A stretch of DNA of 64,000 nt from an uncultured Methanoregulaceae archaeon (GCA_963701095.1 OY969564.1:672001-736000), one strand, 5' to 3'; numbered from the stretch's first letter, positions 1-19,499 are shown. Program-made: numbers and translations. Notes: a model not told the origin generated them from the sequence alone.

Positions 1-114
1 ATCGGACACGTTTTTTCCATCAACCGAGACCGGCATACAGATAACGATTAAAAAAACAACAATGGGCAGGATGAATATCATCCTGTTCGTGAAATGCCCG
101 TTTTGTTTACCCAT
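1..114 (-). CDS. 5' part of a probable secreted/membrane protein, running off the left edge
   Basis: Manual translation from ATG 114: MGKQNGHFTNRMIFILPIVVFLIVICMPVSVDGKNVSD...; signal-peptide-like hydrophobic stretch; open to position 1. Confidence 0.55.
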   Translation of the reverse strand, partial: MGKQNGHFTNRMIFILPIVVFLIVICMPVSVDGKNVSD

Positions 115-795: not shown

Positions 796-901
796 TATTA
801 TCATCTCTTCCCGGATCTGTTCTCCTACAAACTGGTGCCAGAGATCTACATAGGTAAAACATATCGTTGGTCCTTTGATTTCCTGCAGTTATCATCACGG
901 A

Positions 902-2113
902 TCACTCGTGCCTCAGCGCATCAATCGGGTTAAGGTTAGCCGCCTGCACGGACGGATATACCCCGCAGAGAAGGCAGACGATAATACCAAATCCTACTCC
1001 TTCGACAACTGATGTCATGCTTGCCACCGTGAAGAGATACTTCGTAGTGCCAAGAAACAGAGCACTTACCAAATATCCGGCAAGGATACAGAGAATCCCC
1101 CCGATCAAGCTCCCCATCACACCGATGATAGCAGCTTCGTAGACAAACATGCTCATAACTTCCCTTTTTTGTGTGCCAATACTACGCATGATTCCGATCT
1201 CTTTGATCCTTTCGTTGACCGACATGATCATGATGTTAAAGATGGAAACACCCGCGACGATCATTGAGATACCCCCTATGGCCTCGACAAATGTCGTGAC
1301 CGAACTAAAGGTCGAATAGACGGTGGCAAGTGTTGCCTTGCTGTCCGTCACAGAAACAGTCTTATCCCTGGTGTTCCGGTTGAGCTGATTCTCAATGGTC
1401 GTTGTTACAGCCGCCGTAGTGCCGCTGGTGACCTTGACGACCACTTCATTATATTCACCCTGCTCATTGTAGGTACTCTCAAACCAATCTTGCGTCACGA
1501 CAATTGCACTATCGGTGCTGATATCAAAGCTCATTCCCCGTTCCACGATAATACCGGTCACTCTGAGCGTGCCGTATTGCCCATCGGTTCCGATAGAAAT
1601 GCGCGAACCGACCTTGATATTATGATCCGATGCAAATGTCGAACCTACCAGACAGCCGGAGTTTGCATTGTTGTAACCCCCTGCTTGGAGATTGGGTAAG
1701 AGAACGGATTCATCATCTGTCGGGATGCCGTAAATGGTCGCCACGATATCGTTGCTTCCGACACCCACTTGCATATGTTCGGATGTTGAAAGAACAGGAA
1801 TCGCCACGTTCGGGGCAACTACCCGTTTGATCAGCTGGAAATTTTGATCGGTAAGCATCAGGTTTGCAGAGCTTGAACCTCCACCGCCTCCGCTTGGGCC
1901 CATGCCTCCCCCTCCTCCGCTATATGGAGTGACAATTACCGAGTCCCCCACAGACGAGAGACTCGAGCTGATCTCCTGTGTAATACTATTTCCAAGGACA
2001 CCCATAGCACCGATGGCGACGACACCGATAATTATACCGAGCATTGCCAAAGTCGAACGGAGCATGTGGATCCGAATATTTCGTTTGGAGATCTCCCAGA
2101 ATATCGTATTCAT
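902..2113 (-). CDS. ABC transporter permease, MacB/FtsX family
   Basis: RSTLAMLGIIIGV N-terminal TM, large extracellular domain, C-terminal NIMIMSVNERIKEIGIMRSIG and NPIDALRHE motifs. Confidence 0.95.
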   Translation of the reverse strand: MNTIFWEISKRNIRIHMLRSTLAMLGIIIGVVAIGAMGVLGNSITQEISSSLSSVGDSVIVTPYSGGGGGMGPSGGGGGSSSANLMLTDQNFQLIKRVVAPNVAIPVLSTSEHMQVGVGSNDIVATIYGIPTDDESVLLPNLQAGGYNNANSGCLVGSTFASDHNIKVGSRISIGTDGQYGTLRVTGIIVERGMSFDISTDSAIVVTQDWFESTYNEQGEYNEVVVKVTSGTTAAVTTTIENQLNRNTRDKTVSVTDSKATLATVYSTFSSVTTFVEAIGGISMIVAGVSIFNIMIMSVNERIKEIGIMRSIGTQKREVMSMFVYEAAIIGVMGSLIGGILCILAGYLVSALFLGTTKYLFTVASMTSVVEGVGFGIIVCLLCGVYPSVQAANLNPIDALRHE

Positions 2114-2781
2114 GCTGCAATTCTCCCGTCAACGATCCTGATGATCCGATTGGTATATTCAGCAACGAGGGGATCGTGAGTAACAACGATGACGGTTGAG
2201 CCCTTCCTGTTCAGTTCCGTCAGGAGTTCCATGATACTCGCGCCGGTCTTTGAATCGAGATTTCCCGTCGGTTCATCGCACAGCAGGATATCGGGATCAT
2301 TGATAAGCGCCCGTGCAACCGCAACACGCTGTTGCTGTCCCCCCGAAAGTTCGAGGGGAGTGTGTGAGAAGAGATTTTCATCGAGCTGGACTGCACGAAG
2401 CACTTCCCGCGCCTTGTCCTCATTAACTCCTTTACCGGATTTGAGCATCTGGGGAAAGCTGACATTCTCGATGATGTTGAGCAGGGGAAAGAGGTTGAAG
2501 TACTGGAAAATGAACCCGATACGATCCCGTCTCAGGTTCGTGAGTTCGATATCGCTCATATCGCCGACTCCTATCCCACTTATGAAGATATCACCGGTGG
2601 TTGGTGTATCAAGGCATCCCATCAGGTTCAGCAGTGTTGACTTGCCGGATCCCGATGGCCCCATGATCGATATGAACTCCCCCCGTTCCACTTCAAATGA
2701 GACGTGGTTAAGGGCAGTCACATCTCCGGCCTTGAGCGGATAGATTTTAACCACGTCGGAAAACTGGATGACCGGTTGCAT
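2110..2781 (-). CDS. ABC transporter ATP-binding protein (LolD/MacB-like)
   Basis: Walker A GPSGSGKS, signature [15 protein letters not shown], Walker [14 protein letters not shown]-loop VTHD; 4-bp overlap with the permease. Confidence 0.97.
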
Positions 2782-2797
2782 GATGCACCGTCCTCCT

Positions 2798-4066
2798 TTA
2801 CTGTTTCTTTCGCTTCTTCATGTAGAGATACCCGCCTGTACCAAGCACAATTATAATGACAATAATCAGTAACGGAAGCATGCTTGGTTGTGAACCAGTC
2901 TGAGTTGTAGCCTTTGTTAGGTCGATATTCTGGACGGAGGTGATAATATTGCCATTACTGTCTCTGAAAGATTGCTGGAGGGGTACGCTTGTCGTGCCTT
3001 CAGGCACCGTAAAGGTGAGCTCGAAACTGCCGAAGTCATCCGGTTTGAGTGCACCGATAACATAATTCACGTCAGGTTCCTGCGGCACTGCGGGAGAAAG
3101 TGATGTGACCGTGACACCATTTGCGTTCGAGAGACCGGCATTGGTTAAATCTCCGGTGAGGTCGTAAGTCCCGTTGTTGAATGCGATAACAATATTGCTC
3201 ATCACCGGATCGGCCTGCACTTTGTCGGTTGTAAACAGGATCGGCAGAGTGGTATTGATCGTATGGTCGTTGTCCCCGTTCCCGTAATCGACCTGCATGG
3301 AAAGTGAAGTGGGGGAATCCGGTGTAACAGTAAAATTGACCAACGTACTGGTCCCGGCAGGCAGATACCCGATATATGTCTTCGAAGGCGTAAGGGTGGC
3401 ATCGTTCCCGGTAACATCAAAGATGACATTTTTCACATCGTTATCACGGGGATTTGAGATTTGAACACTGATAGTCGCTTTAACTCCTTGGTTGAATGAA
3501 TCCGGCTGGTTAGCAATGGTCATTACAAGGGGTGTATTGTCCACCTTGACCGGTGTTTTTGAATACATTCCATTCCCGGCGACAAAGTTCAAAGAGAATG
3601 AAGGATAGTAGGTACTCGCAGATTTATCCGTTTTAATAGAGAATACAAACGACTGGGTCTGGAGAGGCCCAATGTTGACATTGGTGTCATACGTGCCGCT
3701 GATAAGGTGGATATCGTCATCACCGAAGGTAGCATGGTTGACCATGACGCTTTGGTTTGCATTCCCGTTGGTGACGTAAAACGTTGCAGTTGCAGTATCC
3801 CCGGTAAAGAGGACTGCCGGATCGAGCGTATAGTTTGATAAATATACGTTGTTTGCAGCCTGAACAGCATCAGTTATGGCGTCAGCATTTGCCGGAAGAA
3901 TCAAAAATCCCATGGCCAGGAAAAGAAACACGAGCACCACGTATGCGGAACGCGGCATCCGAGCGAAAATGCTTTTCCTTGCTCCTGAATGAGCCGGCCT
4001 GTGGTCTGCTAAAAAATTCCGATTATCCGGATATGATGGTAGATATTTCATTCTGAACATTCGCAA
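2798..4066 (-). CDS. COG1361-like S-layer/Ig-domain membrane-anchored protein
   Basis: Signal-like hydrophobic segment, Thr/Asn-rich beta domains, YVIGALKPDDFGSFEL motif, C-terminal TM plus basic tail; first gene of the ABC operon. Start uncertain. Confidence 0.8.
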   Translation of the reverse strand: MRMFRMKYLPSYPDNRNFLADHRPAHSGARKSIFARMPRSAYVVLVFLFLAMGFLILPANADAITDAVQAANNVYLSNYTLDPAVLFTGDTATATFYVTNGNANQSVMVNHATFGDDDIHLISGTYDTNVNIGPLQTQSFVFSIKTDKSASTYYPSFSLNFVAGNGMYSKTPVKVDNTPLVMTIANQPDSFNQGVKATISVQISNPRDNDVKNVIFDVTGNDATLTPSKTYIGYLPAGTSTLVNFTVTPDSPTSLSMQVDYGNGDNDHTINTTLPILFTTDKVQADPVMSNIVIAFNNGTYDLTGDLTNAGLSNANGVTVTSLSPAVPQEPDVNYVIGALKPDDFGSFELTFTVPEGTTSVPLQQSFRDSNGNIITSVQNIDLTKATTQTGSQPSMLPLLIIVIIIVLGTGGYLYMKKRKKQ

Positions 4067-4078
4067 TTCCCCAAATGA

Positions 4079-4098
4079 GTAGTAAAATATTTTACTAC
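4079..4098. promoter_or_regulatory. perfect 20-bp palindrome, candidate TrmB operator
   Basis: GTAGTAAAATATTTTACTAC is self-complementary; a degenerate copy GTAGTTAAATTATTAACAAC lies at 4148-4167 in the same divergent intergenic region. Confidence 0.65.
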
Positions 4099-4187
4099 AA
4101 TTTTTACATGAGTTTGACCCAGGACTTATAAAAAAGTATTCATCGTAGTAGTTAAATTATTAACAACTCCGTGAACACTATATTCAT

Positions 4188-5018
4188 ATGGAAAGCATCC
4201 CCGCATCTCTCGTAAAATCGCTCAATAATCTCGGGTTGTCCAATAATGAAGCGAATGTTTATGCCGCGCTGGTCATGTTCGATAATGCAGATGCAAAAGA
4301 TCTTATTGAATATCTCTCTATCTCAAAGCCAAGCGTATACGAGGCTCTGGATCACCTGGCGGAAATGGGACTTGCGGTAAAAAGAATCACCAAACCGGCA
4401 CGATATAGCGCGGTTTCACCTCACATGGCCATTGACCTGCTCATGGGCAACCATAAAAAGTCAGCCAAACTGGCACTGGAAAAACTGGAAAAACTGGAAC
4501 TGGAAAAGGTGCGCACCGATAAGGAGGAGGCTCTCTGGACCATATATGGAGATAAGAGCGTCGAATATAAGTTTCGTGACCTTTTCGGTAAGGCAAAAAA
4601 TCATATCCGGTGCATGATCGGTGAGCGATACCTTCCGTTGGTTGAAAATATACAAATTAAGGATATTTCCCTGTCGCTTATCGTAATATCTGATGCTCCG
4701 GGTCTTGAGAAAAAATTGCGGGCTCAGTTCCCGGGAAAGAACGCGGATATCCATGTGATCACTTCGAAAAAGTTTGCTACTCCCCCACCCTTTGCTCCTC
4801 CGGAATTTGAAGAGCTCCATAAACTGATGAGAGTCGAAAACACGCTGGAACTGATTGTTGATGATGAGGAACTTCTCATGATCCCGCCGTTTTACTCTGA
4901 CACGGTTTCAGTCCTCAATACCCGGAACAAGGGGGCCGTTCTCCAGTTGAAACTCTTCAGCCAGTTTAATTTGAAGCGATTTACTGATGGAATGGATTTT
5001 TCACCGACTGCTCAGTAG
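4188..5018 (+). CDS. TrmB-family transcriptional regulator
   Basis: LGLSNNEANVYAAL...ISKPSVYEALDHLAEMGL winged HTH, ARYSAVSP, effector domain ELIVDDEELL. Confidence 0.9.
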   Translation: MESIPASLVKSLNNLGLSNNEANVYAALVMFDNADAKDLIEYLSISKPSVYEALDHLAEMGLAVKRITKPARYSAVSPHMAIDLLMGNHKKSAKLALEKLEKLELEKVRTDKEEALWTIYGDKSVEYKFRDLFGKAKNHIRCMIGERYLPLVENIQIKDISLSLIVISDAPGLEKKLRAQFPGKNADIHVITSKKFATPPPFAPPEFEELHKLMRVENTLELIVDDEELLMIPPFYSDTVSVLNTRNKGAVLQLKLFSQFNLKRFTDGMDFSPTAQ

Positions 5019-5803
5019 GTGCAGGTGGCGGTGCCATCTCCGTCCCTTCCGGCTCGGCAACTATAACCTCTTCTATATTCACCAATTGCTCGGCAGGTGG
5101 GGGCGGCGCTATCTTTTCAAACAACGCGATAACCATAACCTCTTCGACATTCACCGACTGCTCGGCATACTTCGGCGGCGCCATCGCTACCGGCCCGGCA
5201 ACCATGACCTCCTCGACATTTACCGGGTGCTCAGCAATAGAAGGCGGCGCCATCTTTAATGACGGCGGCACTATGCATTTTTGTCGGATTTATAACGATA
5301 CCGGAATAGCGGTATATAATAACGGTGTCTATTCATTCGATGCATCAGACAACTGGTGGGGCAGCAACAGCGATCCCTCTAGATACACGAGCGGAAACGT
5401 CATCAGCAGTCCATGGTTGGTGCTCGGTGTGATGGCGTCCCCATCCACCATCAACCCTACACAGACCTCTACAATCTCGGCAAACCTGACGGACAATTCC
5501 GCCAGAAACACGCTTTTTGGGACCTATGTTCCCGACAATATCCCGGTCTCTTTTTCAAGTACCGGCGGTACTGTTAATCCCTCAAAGGGTTCGACCCAAA
5601 ACGGTGTGTCCAAGACGACCTTCACACCCTCATCAACCGGTACCGCCTCTGTCACCGCGTCCGTTGACGGTCAGAGCATGACAGCGCCGGTCACGGTGAT
5701 TTCGGGGGGTCTGCCCGAATTTCCCTCTCCTGTGATACCAGCGATTCTAATCATCGGATTGCTGGGAACGGTTCTGTTCATCCGGCGAATCCGAGAATAC
5801 TAA
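5000..5803 (+). pseudogene. 5'-truncated PEF-CTERM surface protein (GGAI beta-helix repeats, Ig-like domain)
   Basis: Frame open from 4988 (in-frame TGA at 4985), no signal peptide; four FTxCSxx(xx)GGAI repeats, DNWWGSN, C-terminal LPEFPSP-TM-RRIREY. Confidence 0.75.
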
Positions 5804-5878
5804 CTTTTTTTTAATCAATCTTTCTCCGTATGACCGCGTTTTAGATTATGAAAAAAGTGAATTAAGATCAAATTATCA

Positions 5879-6068
5879 TTTTCCCGCTTGGCCTTCCCGG
5901 GCGGTACCCTCTCTGCCTCTGGTAACAGACTCTCCCCACCCGGAACCACAACCGCCATTCACCCCATAATATACTCGCTGGCATAAGGCTCGTCTGCCTC
6001 AAAAAGAGCATGGACTTTAACCACGCTTCCATCAGCGAGGACAAGTGTATTCTTAAAGTCCTGAGAAC
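5879..6068 (-). repeat. repeat family 1, copy A
   Basis: Core TTTTCCCGCTTGGCCTTCCCGGGCG (5879-5903) through TTTAACCACGCTTCCATCAGCGAGGAC; minus strand reads DFKNTLVLADGSVVKVHALFEADEPYASEYIMG*MAVVVPGGESLLPEAERVPPGKAKREN. Confidence 0.85.
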
Positions 6069-6134
6069 GGGATAGAACTTTTTTATCGAAAAACTCATAA
6101 TCTAAGAATCTTATATTCTAAGTTGTGAGTGCAT

Positions 6135-6350
6135 ATGTCTGATACGACACTTATCAAGGTCTCGTCAAAGGGACTCGTCACCCTCCCGAAAAAGATCCGG
6201 TCAAAACTCGGCATCAATGACGGCGATTATCTGGCGATATCTTCGAATAAAGACCAGATTATCTTCCGGAAAGCGAAGATCGAAATCGATTATGAAAACC
6301 CGGATGATGCATGGAAGGAGTACTCAAAGAAAAGGTTAGCACATGACTGA
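6135..6350 (+). CDS. AbrB/MazE/SpoVT-family antitoxin (copy 1)
   Basis: KVSSKGLVTLPKKIRSKLGINDGD AbrB signature; overlaps the toxin start. Confidence 0.9.
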   Translation: MSDTTLIKVSSKGLVTLPKKIRSKLGINDGDYLAISSNKDQIIFRKAKIEIDYENPDDAWKEYSKKRLAHD

Positions 6351-6694
6351 ACCGGCACAGGGATCCATTGTCCTTGTGGATTTTTCCTATTCCGACCAGG
6401 TCCAGTCCAAAATGCGTCCGGGCGCTTGTCGTGAGTAACTCCCGGTATAACAGGATCTCCCGTGATGTAATTGTCATGAAAATCACCTCCAGAAAGCCAA
6501 AACTCATGGAGGTCAGTTTGAAAAACGATGATCTTCTGGCCGGATCGTTGGATCATCCCAGCTACGTTCAGGCTGATGGGATCTATGCTCTGGAAAAAGA
6601 ACTCATCTGCAAATCCATCGGTGTTGTTCGGCCAGAGAAGATGCAGGAAATCAGGGGCCTGGTTTTGGATCTCTTCTCTCCTGACAGGGAGTAA
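6343..6694 (+). CDS. PemK/MazF-family toxin (copy 1), +1 frameshift near 6420
   Basis: MTEPAQGSIVLVDFSYSDQVQSKMRP then an extra G (ccgggcg); continues ALVVSNSRYN in the shifted frame; near-identical to intact copy 14048-14398. Confidence 0.85.
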
Positions 6695-6722
6695 TTTTCC
6701 CGGAGAAAAAGCGGTAATGTGT

Positions 6723-6857
6723 CCTCTATTCATCCGGTAACACATTATCCTCACCCGGTACCGCAACCGCAATCCTTCCCTTGATATACTCACTCGCGTA
6801 AGGCCCATCCGCTTCAAAAAGAGCGTGGGATTTAACCACGCTGCCATCAGCGAGGAC
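6723..6857 (-). repeat. repeat family 1, copy B
   Basis: Minus strand reads VLADGSVVKSHALFEADGPYASEYIKGRIAVAVPGEDNVLPDE*; aligns by eye with copies A, D, E and F. Confidence 0.85.
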
Positions 6858-6936
6858 GGAAGTCACCAACACAACAGCACGTAAGTTGCAAAGGTTAATA
6901 ATTCGCTCCGACAAGTGAGTCTTCCGGGACGGTATT

Positions 6937-7548
6937 ATGAGGAAGATAATTGTTCTTTCGTTTGTAACGCTTGATGGCGTTATGCAAGCTCCGGGAGGAC
7001 CGGAGGAAGATCCATCCGGAGGCTTTCGGTACGGGGGCTGGATGGTACCCTATGGCGATGAATTCATGGGAAAAGAGATGATCCGTCAGGTGAGCAGGCC
7101 GTTCGATTTACTCCTCGGGAGAAAGACCTATGAGATTTTTGCAGCGTACTGGCCGAACGCGACAAACCCCAGTGATCCCATAGCCGTGGGATTTAACCAT
7201 GCAACGAAGTACGTTGTCTCAAAAACCCTGACAGCACCCGGATGGAACAAGTCTGTTGTTATCAGCGGGGATGTGGTCGAGGAGATCAAACGGCTCAAGG
7301 AACGCGACGGACCTCAGTTGCAGGTTCACGGAAGCGGAAACCTCATCCAGACACTCATGAAACATGACTTAGTCGATGAATTGTGGCTGAAAATATTTCC
7401 CATCACGCTTGGCCCGGGAAAGCGCCTGTTTGCTGACGGCACTATCCCCGCAGCATTCAAACTGCAGGAATGCAAGACCTCTCCGAGCGGGGTTATCATC
7501 GCTTCGTACCAACGTGCGGGAGAGGTAACCACGGGATCTTTTGTCTAG
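6937..7548 (+). CDS. dihydrofolate reductase / RibD C-terminal family protein
   Basis: SFVTLDGVMQAPGGPEED, LLLGRKTYE, VHGSGNL, DLVDELWLKIFPITLGPGKRLF. Confidence 0.92.
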   Translation: MRKIIVLSFVTLDGVMQAPGGPEEDPSGGFRYGGWMVPYGDEFMGKEMIRQVSRPFDLLLGRKTYEIFAAYWPNATNPSDPIAVGFNHATKYVVSKTLTAPGWNKSVVISGDVVEEIKRLKERDGPQLQVHGSGNLIQTLMKHDLVDELWLKIFPITLGPGKRLFADGTIPAAFKLQECKTSPSGVIIASYQRAGEVTTGSFV

Positions 7549-7613
7549 AGGTGTGAAGAGCGTTCGTCTCCCGATCCATTTCCTTCAACTATAATTTTTC
7601 AGTTACTGTCACC

Positions 7614-7638
7614 TTTTCCCGCTTGGCCTTCCCGGGCG
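7614..7638 (-). repeat. repeat family 1, copy C (core only)
   Basis: Exact 25-mer TTTTCCCGCTTGGCCTTCCCGGGCG, identical to 5879-5903. Confidence 0.8.
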
Positions 7639-7839
7639 TGCCGGTTCTGATAGGTTGACAGGACTTCGTGAGAAAATTCAATTAAAAATGAATTATTTCA
7701 ACGTATTGAATTGGAAAAATTATCAGAGGTCCCGGGAAGTTATCAGCTCCTTTGATTGAATAGTTTCAACGAGGTGAAATATTCGTTCATCAACCTCAGG
7801 CGCTAAACAGATCCAATAATCATCGTCTTTGCTGTTGCT

Positions 7840-8451
7840 TTAGGGAATTTTAAAGAAAACCTTCTTTTCCCGGACATCATGGCAATAGCGACATTCGGTA
7901 GAGCATTTTTCAGCCTGGTAAACAGCATCTCCGTCGCGAACTTTTCCTGCTTGCTTTTCGAATAGAGCGAAATCTCTTCCACAATGCTCACACCGTGACA
8001 TACAATAGTAAATGAGTGAATCCAAAACCACGATGAAAATTGCCAATGCAATAAGCCCGAGGATTAAAATTTCTATGCCATATTTGGGAAATCTCGGTAG
8101 TAATCCAATAAAGGTCGATCGCGTAAATTGATTCGGGGGTATGTTAATGATAGATGCAATACCTATGGGAATTACCAAAAAGAACGAAATGAATGCTATC
8201 AAATCAATGATAATACTCCCTTTAAAACCGACTACACTCATTAAAACTTTTGCAATAACTTCAATATTTGAGGGATCCGCAGGTGCAGTTTCAAATTCCC
8301 GTGATGTATCCTGGATGGAACAGGTATTCTGCTCGATTTTTGATCCATGACCAATTACCGCCTCGTTCTTAAATGTAGTGCCATTGCCGGTTTTTATGGA
8401 ATGATCGTCAATGATATTATTTTGAGGATCCTTATTTTTCAAGATTTGCAC
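7840..8451 (-). CDS. hypothetical membrane protein with C-terminal zinc ribbon
   Basis: Two hydrophobic segments followed by CEHC and CRYC; visibly AT-rich. Confidence 0.65.
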   Translation of the reverse strand: MQILKNKDPQNNIIDDHSIKTGNGTTFKNEAVIGHGSKIEQNTCSIQDTSREFETAPADPSNIEVIAKVLMSVVGFKGSIIIDLIAFISFFLVIPIGIASIINIPPNQFTRSTFIGLLPRFPKYGIEILILGLIALAIFIVVLDSLIYYCMSRCEHCGRDFALFEKQAGKVRDGDAVYQAEKCSTECRYCHDVREKKVFFKIP

Positions 8452-8664
8452 CCCCTCCTATGACACCATCTATCCCGAATATATTTTCGTTTGCAAAAGT
8501 AATACTATCGTCCTGAACACAGAAAAACAGGGTTCTGTCACGTCTTCAGGTAGTTGCATCAAGCCTTCGTCGAGGAAAATATGTCGCCAGTCACGGACTT
8601 AACCGAGCCCCGCCCTGCATTCCGGAAGCATTCAGGTTAACCTGACGGTGTTAGCGCCTGCTTC

Positions 8665-8750
8665 CATTGAATATATTGGTGTTTTACGGGATTATAGCCG
8701 AGTATGAATTCGGCAAAATCGCGCAGATAATGAAAGGATTGGGAAAAAAG
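8665..8750 (+). repeat. repeat family 2, copy 1
   Basis: CATTGAATATATTGGTGTTTTACGGGATTATAGCCGAGTATGAATTCGGCAAAATCGCG... aligns with 31281-31376 and 39749-39846. Confidence 0.7.
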
Positions 8751-8775
8751 TGGCGAGCAGCGCCAGAAAATTTCA

Positions 8776-9452
8776 TTACCAGATAAAGGGAATAAGCCGA
8801 TAGTGGACATTCTGTGTATACTCGCGGTAGCCTTCCACTCCTTGGCTAGCATCTTTTCTTCCCCAATTATCCTTGCCATCAAAAGAACCATAAGAACAAG
8901 ACCTACAAGCACACCAAAGGATGAACTTAAAAGCAGCGGTGCCCCGATCATCATCAGGATTGCGCCAAGGTACATTGGATGCCTGACAAACCTATAAACA
9001 CCGGTCGATATAACCTGCTGCTTCCGGTCGTTCTGGATTCTTACCAGGGGTGAGAGGAATGAATTATCGGCAAATGACCGGAAGAACAGTATGAAGGATC
9101 CGACCAACCCGGCTCCTCCAAGGAGATTCAGCCAGACAGGGAATGCGGGAGACCAGCCAAACCGTTTTGCATCAAGTGGCATAATGACAATCCAGAGCGT
9201 AAACCCGGTTATGAGTCCGTAGACAACGTACCGGTCCCAACCTTCCTGATTGCCGGTACCAGGTTTCTTATATCTTTCTTCCAACAGCGCCGGGTTTTTC
9301 CGGTACAAGGAGAGGATCGTCGAAAAACAGAGAACAATAAACCAGATGCAAAAAACCCAACCTGCAATCCAGAGAAGATCTCCAGAAAGTACGAGGATGA
9401 GAGCAGGAAACAGAAGAATATACAGAAATGTGAAGACGGTCTTCTTCTCCAT
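8776..9452 (-). CDS. isoprenylcysteine carboxyl methyltransferase (ICMT/PEMT) family, -1 frameshift near 8838
   Basis: VISTGVYRFVRHPMYLG, RIIGEEKML; restoring one base gives the canonical ending ELEGYREYTQNVHYRLIPFIW* (stop 8776-8778). Confidence 0.88.
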
Positions 9453-9733
9453 GAAAACTATTATGTGCAGTCGAAGTATTAATCAGTCGCCTCGTTTGTA
9501 GTTCGATCCGTTTTACAGTACTGGTGCGTTAACGGGACTCGAATGAAAATGGCATCGTCGAAATCCATAGAAGTTGATTTTTTAATAGTCCCGCCATCTC
9601 AGAACCTGAATAAATCATCCGCTTTCACGACTAAAGGCGCGACCGTGCAGATAACGCCGTCACGTCCGGGATCCACGTATTGAAATAATCCTGGAGTTTC
9701 TCAGCTATCCCCGTTACAATCTTCGGCGGAATA

Positions 9734-9805
9734 GCCATCCTCCCCTTGATATATTCACTAGCGAAAGGCGCGTCTGCCTCAAAAATATCATGGGATTTAA
9801 CCACG
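9734..9805 (-). repeat. repeat family 1, copy D (central part)
   Basis: Minus strand VVKSHDIFEADAPFASEYIKGRMA. Confidence 0.8.
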
Positions 9806-9963
9806 ATGCGAAGCAAAGTTGCATTGCATCGTTTTATAATTTGCAGGAAATTAATAAATTCAATTAAGGGGCCCGGGACAAGCTCCAGCTGACTATCTTT
9901 TTGCATTCACTCTTCGAGAAAGCCATTCAGTCTTGATCCTAAGGCAAAAGAATGGTGAGTTAG

Positions 9964-11379
9964 ATGAAATCAATTCGAATAATACTCGTAGTGGCCATAC
10001 TTCTTTTCCTTCTGATTTTTATTCAGGGCGTGATGGCTGCGGAAACGTATGGGTATGTGACACAATGGGGTTCCGTTGACTCGGGCAATGGAACGTTTAA
10101 CAATCCCAATGGAGTAGCAGTCGATACATCCGGCTATGTCTATGTTGCTGATATCGGGAATGACAGGATCGAGAAATTTGATTCCAATGGGATTTATCAA
10201 ACTCAATTTGGCACACCTGGCTCGGGTAATGGGCAATTTGAGGGACCCAGAAGTGTAGCAGTCGATAGTTCTGGCAACGTTTATGTAGGTGATGATACTA
10301 GAATTCAGGAATTTGATTCGAATGGGAATTATTTGATGAATATAACTCTCACCGGATATGGCAGCCAAAACACAGATTTTATTCCATGGGGTTTGGCTGT
10401 CGATACATCAGGGAATATCTACGCTGTCGATGGAAACTCGGTTCTGTTAAAATTTGATTCGAATGGAAACTATATCGCGAACTGGAGTATTAGTCTTCCA
10501 ACCGGAGTTGCCGTTGACACTTCAGGAAATGTGTACGTCTCGCAGATGTGGGGGAACATCCAAAAAAATGGAAACTTCTTAGTACTCTTTGGGGAGAATG
10601 GAGATACTAGTAGGTACCCTATGGGTCTTGCTGTTGATGGAACCGGTAACATTTATGTGACGGAAGGAGTCGATAACCGGATTAATGAATTCGATTCAAA
10701 AGGGAATTTTGTAACCCAATGGGGCACCAGGGGTTCTGGAAAAGGTCAGTTCTTTGAACCCAATGGTATTGCCGTGGATGCATCCGGCAATGTATACGTT
10801 GCGGATTCAGGGAACAACAGGATCCAGAAGTTTGCTCCATCTCAGCCCGGCGCTATTACTGTGACTTCTGAGCCGGCTGGTGCCGAGATTTATCTCGATA
10901 GTGAAAACACAACACAGGTAACACCGTACACGTTCGAAAATCTCAACCCGGCTGACTACGATGTTTATGTCGTCCTTAACGGGTATTCTGTACCAGACGT
11001 TCAGACCGTCGATGTGACAGAAGGTTCAACTGCAACCGCCGATTTCCCGCTCCACACACTGGTGAACGGATCTATCTCAGTGATTGCTGCAATAAATGGT
11101 GCTGAAATCTGGATCAACAATGTTGACACCGGACATGTGGCCCCGTTTACCTTTGAGAACATGCCTTGGGGATCCTATCTGATCGAAATAAAATCTTATG
11201 CGTGCTATCAAATGCCGCTGGATGTAACCATTTCGCCAGCTGATCCTGTCGCAACGGCTGACTTCTCCTCTTGCATGCCTCCTATGTTACCCGAATTTCC
11301 CTCGCCGGTCATACCGGCGATTATGATCATCGGATTCCTTGGAGCCGTATTGTTCATCCAACGAACCAGAGAACACTAA
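9964..11379 (+). CDS. secreted NHL-repeat beta-propeller protein with PEGA domains and PEF-CTERM
   Basis: Signal peptide, repeated PxGxAVDxSGNVYVAD, VTSEPAGAEIYLD (PEGA), LPEFPSP-TM-QRTREH. Confidence 0.92.
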   Translation: MKSIRIILVVAILLFLLIFIQGVMAAETYGYVTQWGSVDSGNGTFNNPNGVAVDTSGYVYVADIGNDRIEKFDSNGIYQTQFGTPGSGNGQFEGPRSVAVDSSGNVYVGDDTRIQEFDSNGNYLMNITLTGYGSQNTDFIPWGLAVDTSGNIYAVDGNSVLLKFDSNGNYIANWSISLPTGVAVDTSGNVYVSQMWGNIQKNGNFLVLFGENGDTSRYPMGLAVDGTGNIYVTEGVDNRINEFDSKGNFVTQWGTRGSGKGQFFEPNGIAVDASGNVYVADSGNNRIQKFAPSQPGAITVTSEPAGAEIYLDSENTTQVTPYTFENLNPADYDVYVVLNGYSVPDVQTVDVTEGSTATADFPLHTLVNGSISVIAAINGAEIWINNVDTGHVAPFTFENMPWGSYLIEIKSYACYQMPLDVTISPADPVATADFSSCMPPMLPEFPSPVIPAIMIIGFLGAVLFIQRTREH

Positions 11380-11891
11380 TTTTTTCAATCTTTAAAAATC
11401 CGGCTCCGGAATTTGAGAGGTTTTAGTCCCCTTTTTTGATGCCCCTGCTCGCTTCAGGCGATTATGGTTCATCCGTACAACCATTCCAGTGGAAGTATCC
11501 CCGGCGGGCATTCCCGTTTTTATCATCAGTTTCAGAAGGCCGGTTATCCGTCGTTTTACTAAAGTGGCAGCGCAAAGAATCTTCCTGCCGGGTGCGACCT
11601 ACACAACCGCAGGTGTCCTCCAGTCAGGAACTGACATAGTACCAGTTGAATTTACGGCTAACTTTTACTATTCAGGAGTTACAGGCAATTATGATCTCAC
11701 GGTTCGCGAGATTGGGCCGTAATAATTTTCTCTTCAACCGGGACTGGTTTTTTGACCAAAAGGAGAGTTTCATTATGCACGGCTATTGCTTCTTCAGACG
11801 ACATTCTTTTTCGTTATGTGCCGATACCGCATCAGCATTGCAGAGAGATACTTTTATATACAATCATCGTAACTTCTGGTCAGTGAGATTT

Positions 11892-12533
11892 ATGAAAAAC
11901 CATATCCTTGTTGTTCCGGTTCTGTTTCTGGTTCTTATGTGTGTAATTATGATTTCCGGATGTACGTCAAACACCGGTAATAGTGCAGTTACGACGGTAC
12001 CTACAACGCTGCCTGTGGCTACCGCTGCAGGACCACAGTACCTGACCTATACCAATCCAACATATCAACTGACGATGTCGTATCCTTCTGACTGGCGGGA
12101 ACAGGATGTTGCTCCAGCGACCTGTTTGGCAGCACGTCCCTATGGCAAAACTACCTGTAATATTGTTAATTTCTTTTCCCCGACGGTTAATGGAAAATAT
12201 ACTACCTTCAGTATTGACGTAGATAATCCGACAACATCGACTCTTGGAACGTATTTTAACAATGTTACCGGTGCAATAGAGAACTATTACCCGGGCGTGC
12301 AGGTCGTTCAAACCTCTCTCCAGGAGGAAATTTCCGGCAATCCTTCATATGAGCTTGTCTATACTACAGGTCAGGAGGGGAAAACAAATCCAGTACCGGC
12401 GATTGTGGAAGTCACTTTTGGAAATACTAACGTCCCGTATATTATTTCCTATTCTGCATTAGATGATCAGACATTCGATTATATGGTCAAATCTATCCAG
12501 ATAGCGACGGTACCCCCCACACAAGGCCGGTGA
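11892..12533 (+). CDS. PsbP-like lipoprotein
   Basis: Lipobox-like MISGC after a hydrophobic signal, Thr-rich linker, TYTNPTYQLTMSYPSDW, FDYMVKSIQI. ATG 11892 preferred over the track start. Confidence 0.7.
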   Translation: MKNHILVVPVLFLVLMCVIMISGCTSNTGNSAVTTVPTTLPVATAAGPQYLTYTNPTYQLTMSYPSDWREQDVAPATCLAARPYGKTTCNIVNFFSPTVNGKYTTFSIDVDNPTTSTLGTYFNNVTGAIENYYPGVQVVQTSLQEEISGNPSYELVYTTGQEGKTNPVPAIVEVTFGNTNVPYIISYSALDDQTFDYMVKSIQIATVPPTQGR

Positions 12534-12617
12534 ACTTTTTTTTATTTTTTTGCAGGACTACAAGAAACGTGACCTGCACCGGGAAACCTATTATTCCGGA
12601 TTGAATATTCTCTCATC

Positions 12618-12722
12618 ATAAAGACCAGCACGATTGCCGTTGAGGATACTCCCGAGAACCGACAGATCTGTATGAAGTACTGCGATGCATGCTCGAGCTA
12701 CCAGGAGAACAATCCTGGACAA
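12618..12722 (+). pseudogene. 5' fragment of a DUF2769-like Cys-rich gene
   Basis: IKTSTIAVEDTPENRQICMKYCDACSSYQENNPGQ matches the N-terminus of 51822-52064; start codon ATG changed to ATA; truncated next to repeat copy E. Confidence 0.85.
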
Positions 12723-12738
12723 AACCGCCATCCTCATC

Positions 12739-12918
12739 TTTTCCCGCTTGGCCTTCCCAGGCGCCCTCTCTTCATCCATTAATACAGTCTCCCCTCCTGG
12801 AACCGCGACCGCCATTTTTCCCCGGATATACTCACTCGCGTAAGGCTCGTCGCCTCGAAAATATCGTGGGATTTAGCACAAATAACATCAGCGAGGACGA
12901 TCCTTCTTAATAGTCCAG
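12739..12918 (-). repeat. repeat family 1, copy E
   Basis: TTTTCCCGCTTGGCCTTCCCAGGCG ... GGGATTTAGCAC...CATCAGCGAGGAC; minus strand MAVAVPGGETVLMDEERAPGKAKREK. Confidence 0.85.
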
Positions 12919-12971
12919 GTAATCGAAATTCACAAAAATAAGAATAAAAATTATATCGTAACCAAGTATCT

Positions 12972-13238
12972 TCAATACTCGAAATTCTTCTTTTTTCCGA
13001 TAGTGATTATTTCAATGAGCAGCATATCATGATGGATAAAAAACGTCACCCGGTAATCTCCAACGCGAAGGCGGTACCGGGGCATTATCCTCGGACTGTC
13101 CCGGACTTTTACAACGTCATGACGCAGATCCGGGTTTTCAGCAAATCGCTCTAAGGCAAGTTCGATGTGGATACGAAAATCCCGGGGAATTGACCTCAGG
13201 TCTTTTTCTGCCCGCCGTGAAAGTTTTATCTGGTACAC
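12972..13238 (-). CDS. RelE/ParE-family toxin
   Basis: YQIKLSRRAEKDL, YRLRVGDYRV. Confidence 0.92.
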   Translation of the reverse strand: MYQIKLSRRAEKDLRSIPRDFRIHIELALERFAENPDLRHDVVKVRDSPRIMPRYRLRVGDYRVTFFIHHDMLLIEIITIGKKKNFEY

Positions 13239-13242
13239 GCCA

Positions 13243-13503
13243 TCACAGGTTCCGGGCTTTGATTACTTCGTCGTCACCCAGATCCTTCATGACATCCCGA
13301 AGCGAGCGTACCCTTCCCGCCTTAATGTCGGCTATTCCTTCCTCCATTGCATCAATCTCATCTTTGGTAAGGGGCTCATCATCATACGCTAATTTAGCCA
13401 GGCGGCGAACAACATCATCATAGGTCTCCCGGGGGTTGATCTTCAGATCGTCCAGAAGCGCCTTCGTATCTGTCCGCATTCGTACGGTTGTAACTTCTGA
13501 CAT
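13243..13503 (-). CDS. cognate antitoxin (RHH-like N-terminus)
   Basis: TTVRMRTDTKALLDDLK..PRETYDDVVRRL, acidic PLTKDEIDAMEEGIADIKAGR; directly upstream of RelE. Confidence 0.85.
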   Translation of the reverse strand: MSEVTTVRMRTDTKALLDDLKINPRETYDDVVRRLAKLAYDDEPLTKDEIDAMEEGIADIKAGRVRSLRDVMKDLGDDEVIKARNL

Positions 13504-13512
13504 ATACATGAG

Positions 13513-13524
13513 TATATGCATATA
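13513..13524. promoter_or_regulatory. 12-bp palindrome upstream of the antitoxin, candidate autorepression site
   Basis: TATATGCATATA is self-complementary and lies about 10 bp upstream of the antitoxin ATG; it overlaps TATA-like sequence. Confidence 0.4.
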
Positions 13525-13587
13525 TACTGTAATAAATGGATCACTTTGGGGTAAAAAAATTTCTCTGTTTTATCGTTATCCTTATTG

Positions 13588-13771
13588 TTTCCCGCTTGGT
13601 CTTCCCGGTCGCACCCTCTTGTCATCCGGTAACACATTCTCCCCTCCCGGAACCACAATAGCATCTTCCCTTGATATACTCGCTGGCATACGGCTTGCCA
13701 GCCTCAAAAATGTCATGGGATTTATCCACGCTTCCATCCGCGAGGACACGCGTATTCTTAAAGTCCTGAGA
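13588..13771 (-). repeat. repeat family 1, copy F
   Basis: TTTCCCGCTTGGTCTTCCCGGTCG ... GGGATTTATCCACGCTTCCATCCGCGAGGAC ... GTATTCTTAAAGTCCTGAGAA, colinear with copy A. Confidence 0.85.
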
Positions 13772-13839
13772 AATTAACAAAACCTTTGCACCGAAAAAAT
13801 CATAATCTAATAATCTTATATTCTAAGTTGTGAGTGCAT

Positions 13840-14055
13840 ATGTCTGATACGACACTTGTCAAGGTCTCGTCAAAAGGGCTTGTCACCCTCCCGAAAAAGA
13901 TCCGGTCAAAACTCGGCATAAATGACGGGGATTATCTGGCAATATCATCGAATAAAGACCAGATTATCTTCCGGAAAGCGAAGATCGAAATCGATTATGA
14001 AAACCCGGATGATGCATGGAAAGAGTACTCAAAGAAAAAGTTAGCACATGACTGA
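13840..14055 (+). CDS. AbrB/MazE-family antitoxin (copy 2)
   Basis: Two amino-acid differences from copy 1. Confidence 0.9.
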   Translation: MSDTTLVKVSSKGLVTLPKKIRSKLGINDGDYLAISSNKDQIIFRKAKIEIDYENPDDAWKEYSKKKLAHD

Positions 14056-14398
14056 TCCGGCACAGGGATCCATCGTCCTTGTGGATTTTTCCTATTCCGA
14101 CCAGATCCAGTCCAAAATGCGTCCCGCACTTGTAGTGAGTAATACCCGGTATAACAGGATCTCCCGTGATTTTATCGTCATTAAAATCACCTCCAGAAAA
14201 CCAAAACTGATGGAGGTCAGTCTGAAAAACGATGACCTTCTCGCCGGATCGCTTGACCATCCCAGCTATATTCAGGCTGATGGGATCTACGCTCTGGAAA
14301 AAGAGTTAATTTGCAAATCCATTGGTGATGTTCGACCAGAGAAGATGCAGGAGATCAGGAACCGGGTTTTGGATCTCTTCTCTCCAGATGAGGAGTAA
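14048..14398 (+). CDS. PemK/MazF-family toxin (copy 2, intact)
   Basis: QGSIVLVDFSYSD..QSKMRPALVVSN..YN, IKITS, SYIQAD. Confidence 0.92.
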   Translation: MTDPAQGSIVLVDFSYSDQIQSKMRPALVVSNTRYNRISRDFIVIKITSRKPKLMEVSLKNDDLLAGSLDHPSYIQADGIYALEKELICKSIGDVRPEKMQEIRNRVLDLFSPDEE

Positions 14399-14435
14399 TT
14401 TTCCCGGAATCCAATATTTTACTGTTAATCTCATT

Positions 14436-14452
14436 TTTTCCCGCTTGCCTTC
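14436..14452 (-). repeat. repeat family 1, copy G (degenerate core)
   Basis: TTTTCCCGCTTG-CCTTC, about 40 bp after the MazF stop. Confidence 0.55.
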
Positions 14453-14528
14453 AATTTATGAACGGTATATTGCCTCGATCCCGTAACGGTCCTGCCTGGA
14501 ATGCAGATTATGTTACAGGATTGAACGT

Positions 14529-14681
14529 TTATTTTTTTGCGGCTGGAATATCCCCCTTCAAAAATTTTTGCAAGTCGTTTAACAATTTCTTTTGTTCTTT
14601 CGATCCGTTTTGGGTTTTCTTCAAGAGTTTTGATATCCGTGCAATAGCCGCCTCCTTACTGTCGCGTTCATCTTTCTGCAT
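14529..14681 (-). CDS. small basic helical protein (50 aa), not in ORF track
   Basis: MQKDERDSKEAAIARISKLLKKTQNGSKEQKKLLNDLQKFLKGDIPAAKK* with GGGTGAT ribosome-binding-like site upstream. Confidence 0.5.
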   Translation of the reverse strand: MQKDERDSKEAAIARISKLLKKTQNGSKEQKKLLNDLQKFLKGDIPAAKK

Positions 14682-14856
14682 GTGTATCACCCGATCCTGT
14701 TAGTCAAGGTGGGCTGTTTATCGCATACCCTCTTAATGGCTGGTATTTTCCCGTGTTGGAATGATGACACCATACAAGAAGCAATTTCATCATCAACCGT
14801 TTCCGGACCCAAAACTCCATCAGGTTAATGAACTTCCGGAACATTCCGTAAATTAC

Positions 14857-15984
14857 ATGCAGATCCAGAGATTCGTTGTCCAGACAACTGACGAACTCGA
14901 TGAGAAGATCAGGAAATACCAGAAGGATTTTCGGCCCACTCTCGCATTTCTCTTCACCACACCTTTTCTCGGAATTGAGGACTGCGTCGGGGTATTCGGG
15001 AGCACCGGTGTTGAAGTTTTTGGTTGTACAACTGCCGGAGAGATCATGACGGACACAGGAAGTTCTCCGGTCCACGAACTTTCAGCAGTATGTTGCCTCC
15101 TTGATCCCCCCCCTTCTGCCATCTCAGTACGCCTTTTCGAACGTGGGGAGGGGGGTTCTGCCGCACTCGGGCACCAGATCGGCATCTGGGGTTCCTCGCT
15201 CTTTTCACGCCCCGCGTTCCTTATAGCAATCTCCGGTCTTACCAATGATGGCGAGGCGATCATCCGGGGCATACAGGAAGCCATTCCGGAAGGGACCACC
15301 ATTGTTGGAGGCATCGCCGGCGATGATAATGCGTTTGAGGAGACAACGGCATTTTCCAAAAACGGCCTGTCCCATGACGGCGCAGTGGTTCTTGCCCTTG
15401 ATACCGATCAGATTGAACTCTCCAGTTTTACCACAAGCGGCTGGCAGGGTGTGGGAACCGAGATGGTCGTGACGTCATCGGAAGGAAATGTGGTGAAGTC
15501 CATAGACGGGAGGCTGCCAATCGATCTGGTTACGGAGTACCTCAATATCCCCAAAGAGGAAATCATTGCCACTGCACTCAGTTTTCCCATGCTGGTCACG
15601 CGGCCCGACGGAACCAAAACCCTCCGGACCGCACTCTCCGCGGATTTCGAAACCGGATATCTCACGTATGCAGGAACTATACCGGAAGGTTCGATCCTCA
15701 GGTTCTCCAGCTCGTTCGGATTTGAAACGATAGCGGCTACCACGCGTGAACTGAAAGAATACCATCAGAAGAAACCAGATGCTGATCTCATAATCATTTT
15801 TGACTGTTGTGCCCGCCATCAGGCTGCAGGCAAAAAGGTGAACGAAGAGATCCAGGCTATAGCAGACAACTGGAATGTCCCGGTTGTAGGATTCTTCACT
15901 TACGGGGAGATCGGGCATACGGAAGCCGGGTCATGTGACGTGTTCAACGAAACCCTCTCGTTAGCGCTCCTGAAATTCCGGTGA
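14857..15984 (+). CDS. FIST (FIST-N/FIST-C) signal transduction protein
   Basis: GCTTAGEI, VGGIAGDD, SGWQGVG, IFDCCARH, VGFFTYGEIG, NETL; ATG 14857 likely start. Confidence 0.92.
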   Translation: MQIQRFVVQTTDELDEKIRKYQKDFRPTLAFLFTTPFLGIEDCVGVFGSTGVEVFGCTTAGEIMTDTGSSPVHELSAVCCLLDPPPSAISVRLFERGEGGSAALGHQIGIWGSSLFSRPAFLIAISGLTNDGEAIIRGIQEAIPEGTTIVGGIAGDDNAFEETTAFSKNGLSHDGAVVLALDTDQIELSSFTTSGWQGVGTEMVVTSSEGNVVKSIDGRLPIDLVTEYLNIPKEEIIATALSFPMLVTRPDGTKTLRTALSADFETGYLTYAGTIPEGSILRFSSSFGFETIAATTRELKEYHQKKPDADLIIIFDCCARHQAAGKKVNEEIQAIADNWNVPVVGFFTYGEIGHTEAGSCDVFNETLSLALLKFR

Positions 15985-15990
15985 ACCCTG

Positions 15991-18338
15991 ATGAGTGAAA
16001 TCAATGAGCTCAGGGATCTGCTCAAATCGTCCCTCAACCAGATTGAGAAACACGACGCAGACAGGGTAGAACGACTCCTCCGGCGCCTCGAAACCAGGAC
16101 CGAGATGCTTGAGAAGAAATACAACCGTGCCACCCAGGACCGGCAGGCCGGCCATTCGCTCCTGAAAAAGACATCGGATGACCTTATCCAGCGATACCTG
16201 GCCATCTTCGAACATTCCGGTAATCCTATGGTAGTCATTGAGAACGATGGCACCATTGTTCTTGTAAACAATCTTTTCTGCACATTAACGGGCCAGAATG
16301 CTGAGGATATCCAGAACAGGAGCAATATTACCGATTACCTTACCGGAGAAATGGGAGGGCTTATGCCCGCTGACACGACCCAGACAGGCCAGGCTCCCGT
16401 TACCACGGAAACCACCACCGGCAGAATGCATCTTCCTGATGGAAGGATAGTCGATGTAATAATCAGCATGGGATCGTTCTCCGGCAGCTCGCAGCGGAGC
16501 GTCACCTTTCTCGATATAACTGAACGCAACCGGCTGGAACGGGAACTGATGGAGACAACCGAGCTCCTCACCGGTATCCTCAAAGCTTCGCCTGTCGGGT
16601 TCCATAAAACTGACACCGAGGGAAAGATCGTCTATATTAACGATACGTGGACGCGTATTACCGGGTTCTCCCGCGAGGAAATGCTGGGTAAATTCTACGC
16701 AATTATAGTTCACCCGGAGGATCGCGAGAACGTCATTCAGGGAGTACGGGAGAGTGCAGAAAGGAAAGAGAGTATGGTAATCGATACACGCATCGTCCGG
16801 CAGGATGGCGTGATACGCTGGATCTCGGCCCAGGCAGTACCTGTTGTGGATCCGGGCAACAACATAACCGGGTGGGTAGGTGCGATACGGGACATCACAC
16901 AAAGGCGTGAAGCAGAAGAGGCACTCCATAAAAGCGAGCTCAGGTTCCGGGAGCTTACTGATCTTCTCCCTCAAACTATCTTTGAACTGGATTTGCGAGG
17001 GAGTATCACCTATGTTAACCGTGCCGGTCTTGAAATATTCGGTATTAACGAGGAGAAAATCCAGAACGGCGTAAACGTCCGCGAATATATCAGCCCCGGA
17101 GATCTCGAACGTATGAATACGGGACTGGCAAGAGTGGGTGCTGGTGCAAAATCCCAGGGAGAGGTCGTTCATCTCACGAGGCTTGACGGAACACTGATGA
17201 ACGCTATTGTTTATACCGGTCCCATCATTCGGAACGATGCGGTGATCGGGTTCCGCGGTATTGTGATCGATGTCACTGAACGGTTGAAACTCGAAGATGC
17301 ACTCAAAGAGAGCGAGGAAAAATACCGGGCTCTTACGGAAAATACCCCGGATATACTCTTTTCTACGGATATGAACGGGATTATTACCTATGCCTCACCA
17401 CAAATCGCAAAATATGGATTTCTTGAAGATGATGTAATGGGAAAACCATTTCATATTTTCGTCCACCCCTCAGATGTTCATGACGTGGAAAGTAATCTTT
17501 CCCGGGAATTGAAAGAGAATGCGCAATTTGTTTCCCGGTTCAGGATCCTGGACAAATGGGGTATTACGAACTGGTTTGAGGAGAAAAGTTCCCTGCGGCT
17601 TGACATATCAGGAAAACCGATCGGGATCTATGGCATCCTTCGGGATATCACAGAACGAAAAAAGGTTGAAGATGCAATCGAAATTGCCAATAAAAAACTA
17701 AACCTGATGAACCAGATCACCCGTCACGATATTATCAACACCATTACCGGGGTATCGGATGCTTAGACATGGCAAAATCTACAACTGAACCTGAAATGAA
17801 GGAGCAGCTTCTTGATGATATCAGGGAACTTACCCGGGTTATCCAGCGCCATATTACGTTTACCCGGGAGTACCAGGAAGTCGGTGTCCATCTGCCGCAA
17901 TGGCAGAATGTCAATGATCTTATCGATAAAACAATTAAGAATTTCACAAAATCGGGTATCATATTTCAATCAGATTTCGAAAATATTGAGGTCTACGCGG
18001 ATCCTTTACTGGAAAAAGTGTTTTACAATCTGGTAGATAATGCCATAAGGTACGGGAAAAAACTTACAACTATTGCGATATATCCAAAGATTTCCGATAC
18101 GGATTTCTCGCTCATTTTTGAGGACAATGGTGTTGGTGTCGAACCTGACATGAAACGCGAGATCTTCAAACGCGGAGTTGGAAAGAATACCGGGATGGGA
18201 TTGTTCCTGACCGCTGAGATCCTGGCAATTACCGGAATATCAATAGAAGAAGCCGGAACGTATGGGAAGGGTGCCTGTTTCGAGATCCGAATCCCGGCAG
18301 GATACTGGCGTTTTGTGACGGAAGAACACGCACGGTAA
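15991..18338 (+). CDS. multi-PAS histidine kinase, -1 frameshift near 17755
   Basis: Four PAS modules and ITRHDIIN H-box in the first ORF; second ORF has the HATPase (NLVDNAIRYG, DNGVG, GMGLF); paralog at 58550 reads GLFGCVDM across the junction. Confidence 0.9.
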
Positions 18339-18452
18339 CTATTTCAGCGAACCGGTACGTTGTATAGACATTTCGTTACCTTCTGCAACTGTTCTGTGGT
18401 TAGTTGTGCCCTGATTGTAAAATAATGCTGCAGGATTGATTCAAAAAAAAAG

Positions 18453-19472: not shown

Positions 19473-19499
19473 CGACCTGAAAGAAATTAATCTAAAAGT

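Follow-up and report, generated by a model that had tools for sequence, protein, structure and literature searches.

Decayed copies of a virus-linked small-protein gene separate accessory genes in a toxin-antitoxin-rich island of a Methanoregulaceae archaeon

What is the repeated element that separates small gene units in a variable region of an uncultured Methanoregulaceae archaeon, and how might it have come to lie there? The DNA analysed here (GCA_963701095.1 OY969564.1:672001-736000; hereafter the window) is 64,000 nucleotides long and represents genome positions 672001-736000 of contig C1, the single contig of a 2.63 Mb genome. A first-pass annotation had described a cassette-like array delimited by seven same-orientation copies of a degenerate ~190-bp element and had proposed that the repeat is the recombination substrate of a gene-capture system. 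The present analysis mainly corrects this first reading: the "degenerate element" is a decayed, uncharacterised small-protein gene, here named ORF67, and not a structured recombination site. The origin favoured for the array, tentatively and with slightly less than even confidence, is the accretion of ORF67-bearing DNA segments in a toxin-antitoxin (TA)-rich variable island, followed by decay.

The repeat as a protein-coding gene

The repeat sequence was recovered at all seven positions first annotated (direct-repeat search and alignment). It is the remains of a gene coding a 67-residue protein when intact. Three parts are distinguished: a 27-codon segment (A), segment B, and a 25-nt 3' block (block C, TTTTCCCGCTTGGCCTTCCCGGGCG). 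The copies in the window are:

5873-6049, minus strand: c1, long (A, B and C), in-frame TGA after 'YIMG', no in-frame start codon; hidden Markov model (HMM) E 5.8e-52
6716-6864, minus strand: c2, A and B, no block C, open reading frame (ORF) open over 6726-6914 from a TTG start; HMM E 3.1e-44
7594-7642, minus strand: c3, block C and ~20 nt of 3' flank alone, exact 25-mer; nhmmer E 1.3
9712-9825 (entry 9631-9825), minus strand: c4, segment A only, fused to another small ORF; HMM E 1.8e-27
12734-12900, minus strand: c5, long (A, B and C), frame broken within A; HMM E 1.3e-46
13576-13754, minus strand: c6, long (A, B and C), 2-nt gap after 'YIKGR'; HMM E 1.9e-48
14416-14455, minus strand: c7, ~40 nt, part of block C and 3' flank, 13-mer with one mismatch

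Five copies (c1, c2, c4, c5 and c6) are long; c3 and c7, end fragments of ~30-45 nt, fall well short of the size first given to the element. Segments A, B and C are all carried by c1, c5 and c6; c2 is devoid of the TTTTCCCGCTTGG block and c4 is the 5' half alone. A nucleotide HMM trained on the five long copies found no copy in the window besides the seven, as first stated. Across the genome it identified four more: a cut-down copy at 669422-669489 (2.5 kb left of the window, upstream of Mre11), an intact one at 821769-821969, and weak fragments at 2239366 and 2611026 that sit between ordinary genes. Ordinary intergenic DNA outside the array thus also holds copies. A six-frame profile search of the whole genome did not find hidden additional copies. 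The eight clustered copies all lie on one strand, an arrangement with a chance probability of ~0.008 if orientations are independent. Over c2, c3, c4, c5 and c7, short-read contigs from run X1 show 0-2 differences from the window, and c1 and c6 are spanned by none of the matches listed. An assembly artefact was rejected as source of the array, X1 contigs bridging five of its seven copies.

Minus-strand translation of every copy gives pieces of one peptide, ...VLADGSVVKSHALFEA.EPYASEYIKGR.AVAVPGGE..LP.EER.... None of the window copies has a native start and most have a stop, a frameshift or a truncation; they are decayed genes. The only intact genomic copy, a 67-residue ORF (P0001), is found ~150 kb away. 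The ratio of nonsynonymous to synonymous differences per site (pN/pS) in segment A is 0.00-0.35 in all 28 pairs compared, window copies included. Summed over pairs, it amounts to 0.15 in the ORF67 frame versus 2.90, 1.88, 1.70 and 1.75 in four other frames, and 0.27 in the antisense frame with the same third positions. Differences at codon positions 1, 2 and 3 number 48, 54 and 199, respectively. This frame-specific selection, together with the dominance of third-codon changes, identifies a coding history of ORF67.

Codon-level selection of this kind also argues against a repeat resembling a miniature inverted-repeat transposable element, that is, non-coding mobile DNA inserted between resident genes. 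The short copies dispersed in intergenic DNA at 669.4, 2239 and 2611 kb would fit such an element. The truncations of the copies are, however, variable, and no terminal inverted repeats were listed for their ends, the only two inverted pairs recorded being unrelated. This origin is disfavoured and appears extremely improbable.

A narrow protein family next to capsid genes

The ORF67 product features a conserved amino-terminal domain of ~40 residues followed by a Pro/Glu-rich tail with a basic end. The amino-terminal motif F-[ED]-A-x-E-P-[YF]-A-[ST]-[ED]-Y-I and the tail were both recognised in alignment A4. The family comprises 8 proteins among 5.8 billion clusters, two of which belong to the window genome. 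It is present in two of 201 genomes of the order, again counting the window genome, and at six loci outside this genome (L014-L019). A profile search of 1.84 billion representative proteins yielded 9 matches at E<=0.001. Four of these are remote relatives of 86-111 residues (E ~4e-4 to 1e-3) that share the motif and the basic-ended tail; they are marginal links. Pfam, NCBIfam and PHROGs gave nothing significant for ORF67, the best match being phrog_5773 'head protein' (E 0.071 for P0002), and the AlphaFold2 model built from the 8-sequence alignment was unusable (pLDDT 54.5, pTM 0.25). The nearest ESM-Atlas clusters are small Uroviricota proteins whose scores of 0.87-0.89, all <0.9, make them leads only.

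The intact copy (L001 7770-7973) is immediately preceded by a head-decoration gene (phrog_766, 9e-10) and by an HK97-type major head gene that is frameshifted (phrog_264, 8e-6). Metagenome locus L015 codes for the same capsid carboxyl terminus and then ORF67. A remote relative is found immediately after the major head gene in the tailed-virus contig L035, where the genes are arranged as terminase, portal, protease, capsid, [small ORF], adaptor and tail. Note that L035 is the one locus found in viral contigs, via the remote-homolog alignment alone; the ORF67 alignment and alignment A4 had no match there, the block C pattern had 0 matches, and tblastn of P0001 and P0013 against INPHARED phages gave no match. 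ORF67 is an uncharacterised, very narrow, virus-linked family that in virus contexts sits directly after the major capsid gene. The intact gene, the L015 copy and the remote relative in L035 are in this respect like the small, uncharacterised proteins of tailed viruses whose genes come next after the one for the major capsid protein; the difference is that here the gene was multiplied and broken within a host island that carries no capsid genes.

Two further observations concern capsid-gene surroundings in this genome. At L001 1-2908 (genome 814000-816908) a reverse transcriptase gene (RVT_1, 1.1e-7) adjoins one for a carbon-nitrogen hydrolase (4.4e-6), a pair that resembles defence-type reverse transcriptase-nitrilase pairs. 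Genes for a PD-(D/E)XK/Cas4-like exonuclease and an HslV-like peptidase come next, and the capsid-gene remnant lies a short way downstream. Another provirus may be marked by a second capsid-gene homolog (genome 358356-361651), which is 30% identical to that of L001 and has a tyrosine integrase ~2 kb away; no ORF67 copy was detected at that locus.

The island, its cargo and its junctions

The variable, TA-rich island at window 5.8-14.5 kb begins where synteny with relatives ends. The relatives G211 and G041 are syntenic over window 900-5015 (ABC transporter, TrmB) and the synteny ends after TrmB; no comparable repeat array was found in the relatives' regions after TrmB (L021-L023). The units between the copies are:

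6081-6708, plus strand: AbrB-MazF module 1, AbrB 6129-6350 and MazF 6368-6694 (Pfam)
6937-7548, plus strand: RibD_C, a DHFR-like reductase (Pfam)
7840-9452, minus strand: Zn-ribbon membrane protein 7840-8451 and ICMT/PEMT methyltransferase 8637-9452 (Pfam)
9964-12533, plus strand: NHL/PEGA/PEF-CTERM protein 9964-11379, small ORF piece 11440-11723, PsbP-like gene 11646-12533
12969-13537, minus strand: ParE toxin 12972-13238 and DUF7557 antitoxin 13243-13521 (Pfam)
13785-14412, plus strand: AbrB-MazF module 2, 92% identical to module 1

The cargo calls of the first-pass annotation agree with Pfam, which gives MazE/PemK twice, RibD_C, ICMT/PEMT, NHL with PEGA, PsbP_2, and ParE with DUF7557. The cassette-like appearance is likewise real: TA pairs and small enzymes form units of one or two genes between direct repeats. 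Type II TA pairing is seen in adjacent MazE_antitoxin and PemK_toxin genes twice and in DUF7557 and ParE_toxin once. Both strands carry cargo, and several of the units are made up of two genes. Near 6420, the MazF gene of module 1 contains one base that neither module 2 nor the copy in genome G086 has, and the MazF amino terminus is shifted as a result. This base looks real because an X1 contig spanning it is identical to the window over 6366-6997; judged from sequence, the toxin may be inactivated.

The AbrB-MazF module is a portable unit, with DNA homologs in 30 of 108 genomes of the genus, window genome included. In G086, ParE/DUF7557 (85% identical, inverted), the 11440-11723 piece and AbrB-MazF (92%) occur in a different order in an island that starts with a tyrosine integrase and has no ORF67 copy, from which it follows that cargo modules move without the repeat. 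Cargo order differs from that of G086 and of variant contigs. The G086 island (L034, G086:C12, 4970-13800) codes for the tyrosine integrase, ParE/DUF7557, AbrB-MazF, DUF2283, Fic/DOC and a nucleotidyltransferase, and two 76-78-nt repeat families (D1, D2) are found between some of its modules. Two other repetitions were observed around the PEF-CTERM genes. The sorting tails of three surface proteins (5714-5809, 11290-11385; L002 11039-11130) share ~81% DNA identity including the stop codon and a T-run, and window 5059-5254 holds three tandem units (72 and 69 nt) upstream of and into the 5' end of a PEF-CTERM ORF.

An alternative origin of the array is an in-situ paralog family. ORF67 could be a small gene of the host or of the island, such as a regulator that travels with TA modules, and could have been multiplied by segmental duplication; its neighbours would later have been replaced by ordinary indels, some copies would be functional and part of the damage would be assembly error. 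Consistent with this are purifying selection even between window copies (c1 versus c2 pN/pS 0.11), open frames of 62, 91 and 52 residues in c2, c4 and c6, and the pairing of ORF67 with divergent AbrB-MazF modules twice at the same junction. Assembly quality also bears on it: relative to the window, contigs of two runs each have an extra G behind 8837 (X1, X5) and an extra A behind 9879 (X1, X9), several sensor-kinase genes are split or overlapping (17766/17769, 48747-48964, 58987-59086) and marker completeness is 86% for a single-contig assembly, which together suggests indel errors. On the other side, c1 is without a start codon and its stop is of the substitution type, c3 and c7 amount to stubs of 30-45 nt, and the breaks of c5 lie under an X1 contig that has one gap only, elsewhere. 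The duplication is also not recent, since the identity between modules 1 and 2 (92%) does not exceed that of the modules to the G086 copy (92% and 90%). Presence of ORF67 in so few genomes of the order would, in addition, be odd for a host regulator. In-situ duplication is considered rather unlikely.

Several features of the junctions point to recombination at the repeat. Block C is 84-100% identical among c1, c5, c6, the intact copy, L015 and L016b, while in the same comparison segment A is 73-90% and segment B 68-83% identical, and the reading frame across block C varies between copies. Its conservation exceeds coding need and, like the uniform orientation and the variant joints described below, is among the features suggestive of such recombination. 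The composite of element and AbrB-MazF is present twice, and the two share homology from precisely the outer limit of block C (5880/13588) onwards; the synteny of L015 with the intact locus breaks off ~8 nt or less from block C. Copy c4 is joined at 'GGATGGC' to the start of a small ORF that L019 has 2.3 kb (three genes) downstream of a full element, and at locus L016 a pair of genes is enclosed by two copies that are 1.4 kb from each other. On the minus strand, a site reduced to block C (c7, c3) comes first in each series of long sites (c7-c6-c5-c4 and c3-c2-c1), as would be predicted for long sites borne by elements that encounter a short target in the chromosome. Contigs with variant joints were also found. 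Those of run X1 join 5943 to 6765 (skipping 821 bases, the AbrB-MazF unit), 6859 to 7609 (skipping RibD_C), 6858 to 8665, and 11720 to 6081 with 23 letters between, the same 23 letters being the G086 junction sequence; X9 joins 13641 to 6756. A test for a c1/c6 mosaic found no sharp switch in segment identities.

Two observations stand apart from these. Contigs from all four runs diverge from the window at 8588-8589 and 8665, between the Zn-ribbon and ICMT genes, a recurrent rearrangement or a conservation boundary. The sequence 'TTTTCCCG' has 8 of its 9 plus-strand window matches within the array, compared with 0.09 per kb per strand for the genome as a whole. It was dropped as cassette or crossover core, and its enrichment is not independent support for one, because five matches are block C copies and two follow MazF in sequence native to the TA module.

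Accretion, capture and comparison with known systems

In the accretion reading, DNA segments each carrying an ORF67 copy with one or two neighbouring genes would have entered the chromosome by Campbell-type recombination with a resident ORF67 copy, by way of the shared gene and perhaps at the conserved 25 nt of its 3' end. Every such event would add one direct repeat, the copies would then decay by stops, frameshifts and truncations, and units in the population are probably still being lost or rearranged through recombination between copies. This reading builds on the coding history, decay, virus link and one-strand arrangement of the copies, on the composite unit present twice, the conservation of block C and the synteny break after TrmB, and on the L016 copy pair and the X1 joints that skip single units.

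A number of findings weigh against it. The TA modules have boundaries of their own: in 9 relative loci AbrB-MazF homology starts at 6081-6094 and ends at 6661-6708, 15-70 nt from the element ends, none of these loci carries an ORF67 repeat, and 'TTTTCCCGG' after MazF is native to the TA module in relatives. Three distant copies lie in ordinary intergenic DNA, c2 is without block C and the c4 junction is mid-element, not at block C. The variant joints are weak evidence: each is a single contig with 31-58 nt on its shorter side at an 85% likeness threshold, and the joints may come from related organisms or strains. Since the assembly has indel errors (8837, 9879), some single-base frameshifts in the copies could be assembly errors, and polishing is needed before the pseudogene label is applied. 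As to mechanism, copies 73-90% identical are a poor substrate for homologous recombination, and a site-specific route would need an enzyme. No tyrosine or serine recombinase, integrase, resolvase, Y1 transposase or TnpB is coded in the window, the nearest tyrosine recombinase (PF00589) being at 787110, 51 kb past the window end.

The absence of a recombinase from the window had already been recorded in the first-pass annotation, and extends to transposases and resolvases. An active integron-like capture array would be served in trans by a recombinase coded elsewhere in the genome, as for a CALIN (cluster of attC sites lacking integron-integrases) or a Xer-dependent module, with block C or the whole ORF67 3' end as site; units made of block C, B, A and cargo would be excised as circles and re-inserted. 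Direct sites between one- or two-gene units with TA cargo, a block C more conserved than coding segment A despite its differing frame, a duplicated unit that begins exactly at block C, the L015 synteny break beside it and joints that skip single units all suit such a system. The genome has 12 tyrosine (PF00589) and 3 serine recombinase matches, and archaeal integrons are mostly CALINs without recombinase (PMC9668308).

The known hallmarks of recombination sites were nevertheless not found. The whole genome lacks a match for the integron integrase IntI (TIGR02249, best 47.9 bits versus a cut-off of 265). CALINs have no IntI, so that its absence alone excludes no CALIN. The attC core-site consensus, which we take to be R'' RYYYAAC ... 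R' GTTRRRY, gave 0 pairs in 5800-14800 on both strands (regular expression, 40-130 nt spacing) and 2 in the window, none overlapping a copy. Eight DNA folds (four copies, both strands) revealed no shared whole-element hairpin, with z-scores of 0.20, -0.14, -3.09, -2.21, -0.81, 0.44, -1.31 and -1.06, six of the eight above -2. A dif-type site, as outlined in PMC2958812, has 28 bp with 11-bp inverted arms and a 6-bp spacer. The best arm complementarity in block C of the 7 copies is <=7/11, at inconsistent positions. Rfam gave 0 matches in window 1-20000 at E<=1. Cassettes of a single ORF in one orientation, a feature of integrons, are also not what the array contains, c2 has no block C, the c4 junction and several joints fall mid-element, and in G086 the same modules are shuffled without the element. 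Capture by a dedicated system is thus judged improbable. The repeat is a decayed protein-coding gene whose family follows the capsid gene in virus contexts, has copies outside the array in intergenic DNA and is dispensable for movement of the same TA modules; it does not answer to the dedicated non-coding substrate first proposed. Overall, the array resembles the scars of repeated DNA insertion rather than a proven capture machine.

The two readings carry different implications. If accretion is correct, the locus shows a methanogen TA and accessory-gene island assembled from virus-linked DNA, with a capsid-adjacent gene as recurring joint, and ORF67 becomes a usable marker for such islands in Methanoregula. 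If capture is correct, Archaea would have a second gene-cassette system with a mechanism of its own. Independent of attC, it would use the 25-nt 3' end of a virus-derived gene as crossover site and would form an archaeal counterpart of integron cassettes or pdif modules, assembled from the co-opted end of a viral gene.

Among known systems, the archaeal integrons have canonical IntI, attC and attI, and are mostly CALINs without recombinase (Ghaly et al. 2022, PMC9668308). The array shares with them direct repeats between small cassettes, many TA genes and no adjacent integrase. It differs from that account in that its repeat is a decayed coding gene without R''/R' boxes or conserved hairpin, the genome has no IntI, and cargo lies on both strands, with some two-gene units that have their own upstream regions. 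It is not one of the archaeal integrons described there. The Xer-dependent dif (pdif) modules of Acinetobacter plasmids (compare PMC6449649 and PMC13141974) are small shuffling modules that often carry TA pairs, like the array, and are bounded by short sites used by an unlinked host recombinase. These pdif sites are 28-bp dyads; block C has no consistent 11-6-11 dyad, and the array sites are direct and each attached to a gene remnant.

Tandem accretion of integrative elements or proviruses at one attachment site, as known from genomic islands (compare the 'dark matter islands' of archaea, PMC4158269), is different in some respects. The repeat of the array is ~190 bp of a virus-type gene and not the 3' end of a tRNA or host gene, no integrase is adjacent, and the units measure only 0.8-5 kb. 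Neither a PF00589 match at one end nor a tRNA (tRNA scan) is present in the window. The likeness is in the arrangement: direct repeats surround each insert and separate successive ones that decay to a few cargo genes, the island is variable, TA-rich and beside conserved core genes, and the equivalent island of the relative G086 begins with a tyrosine integrase.

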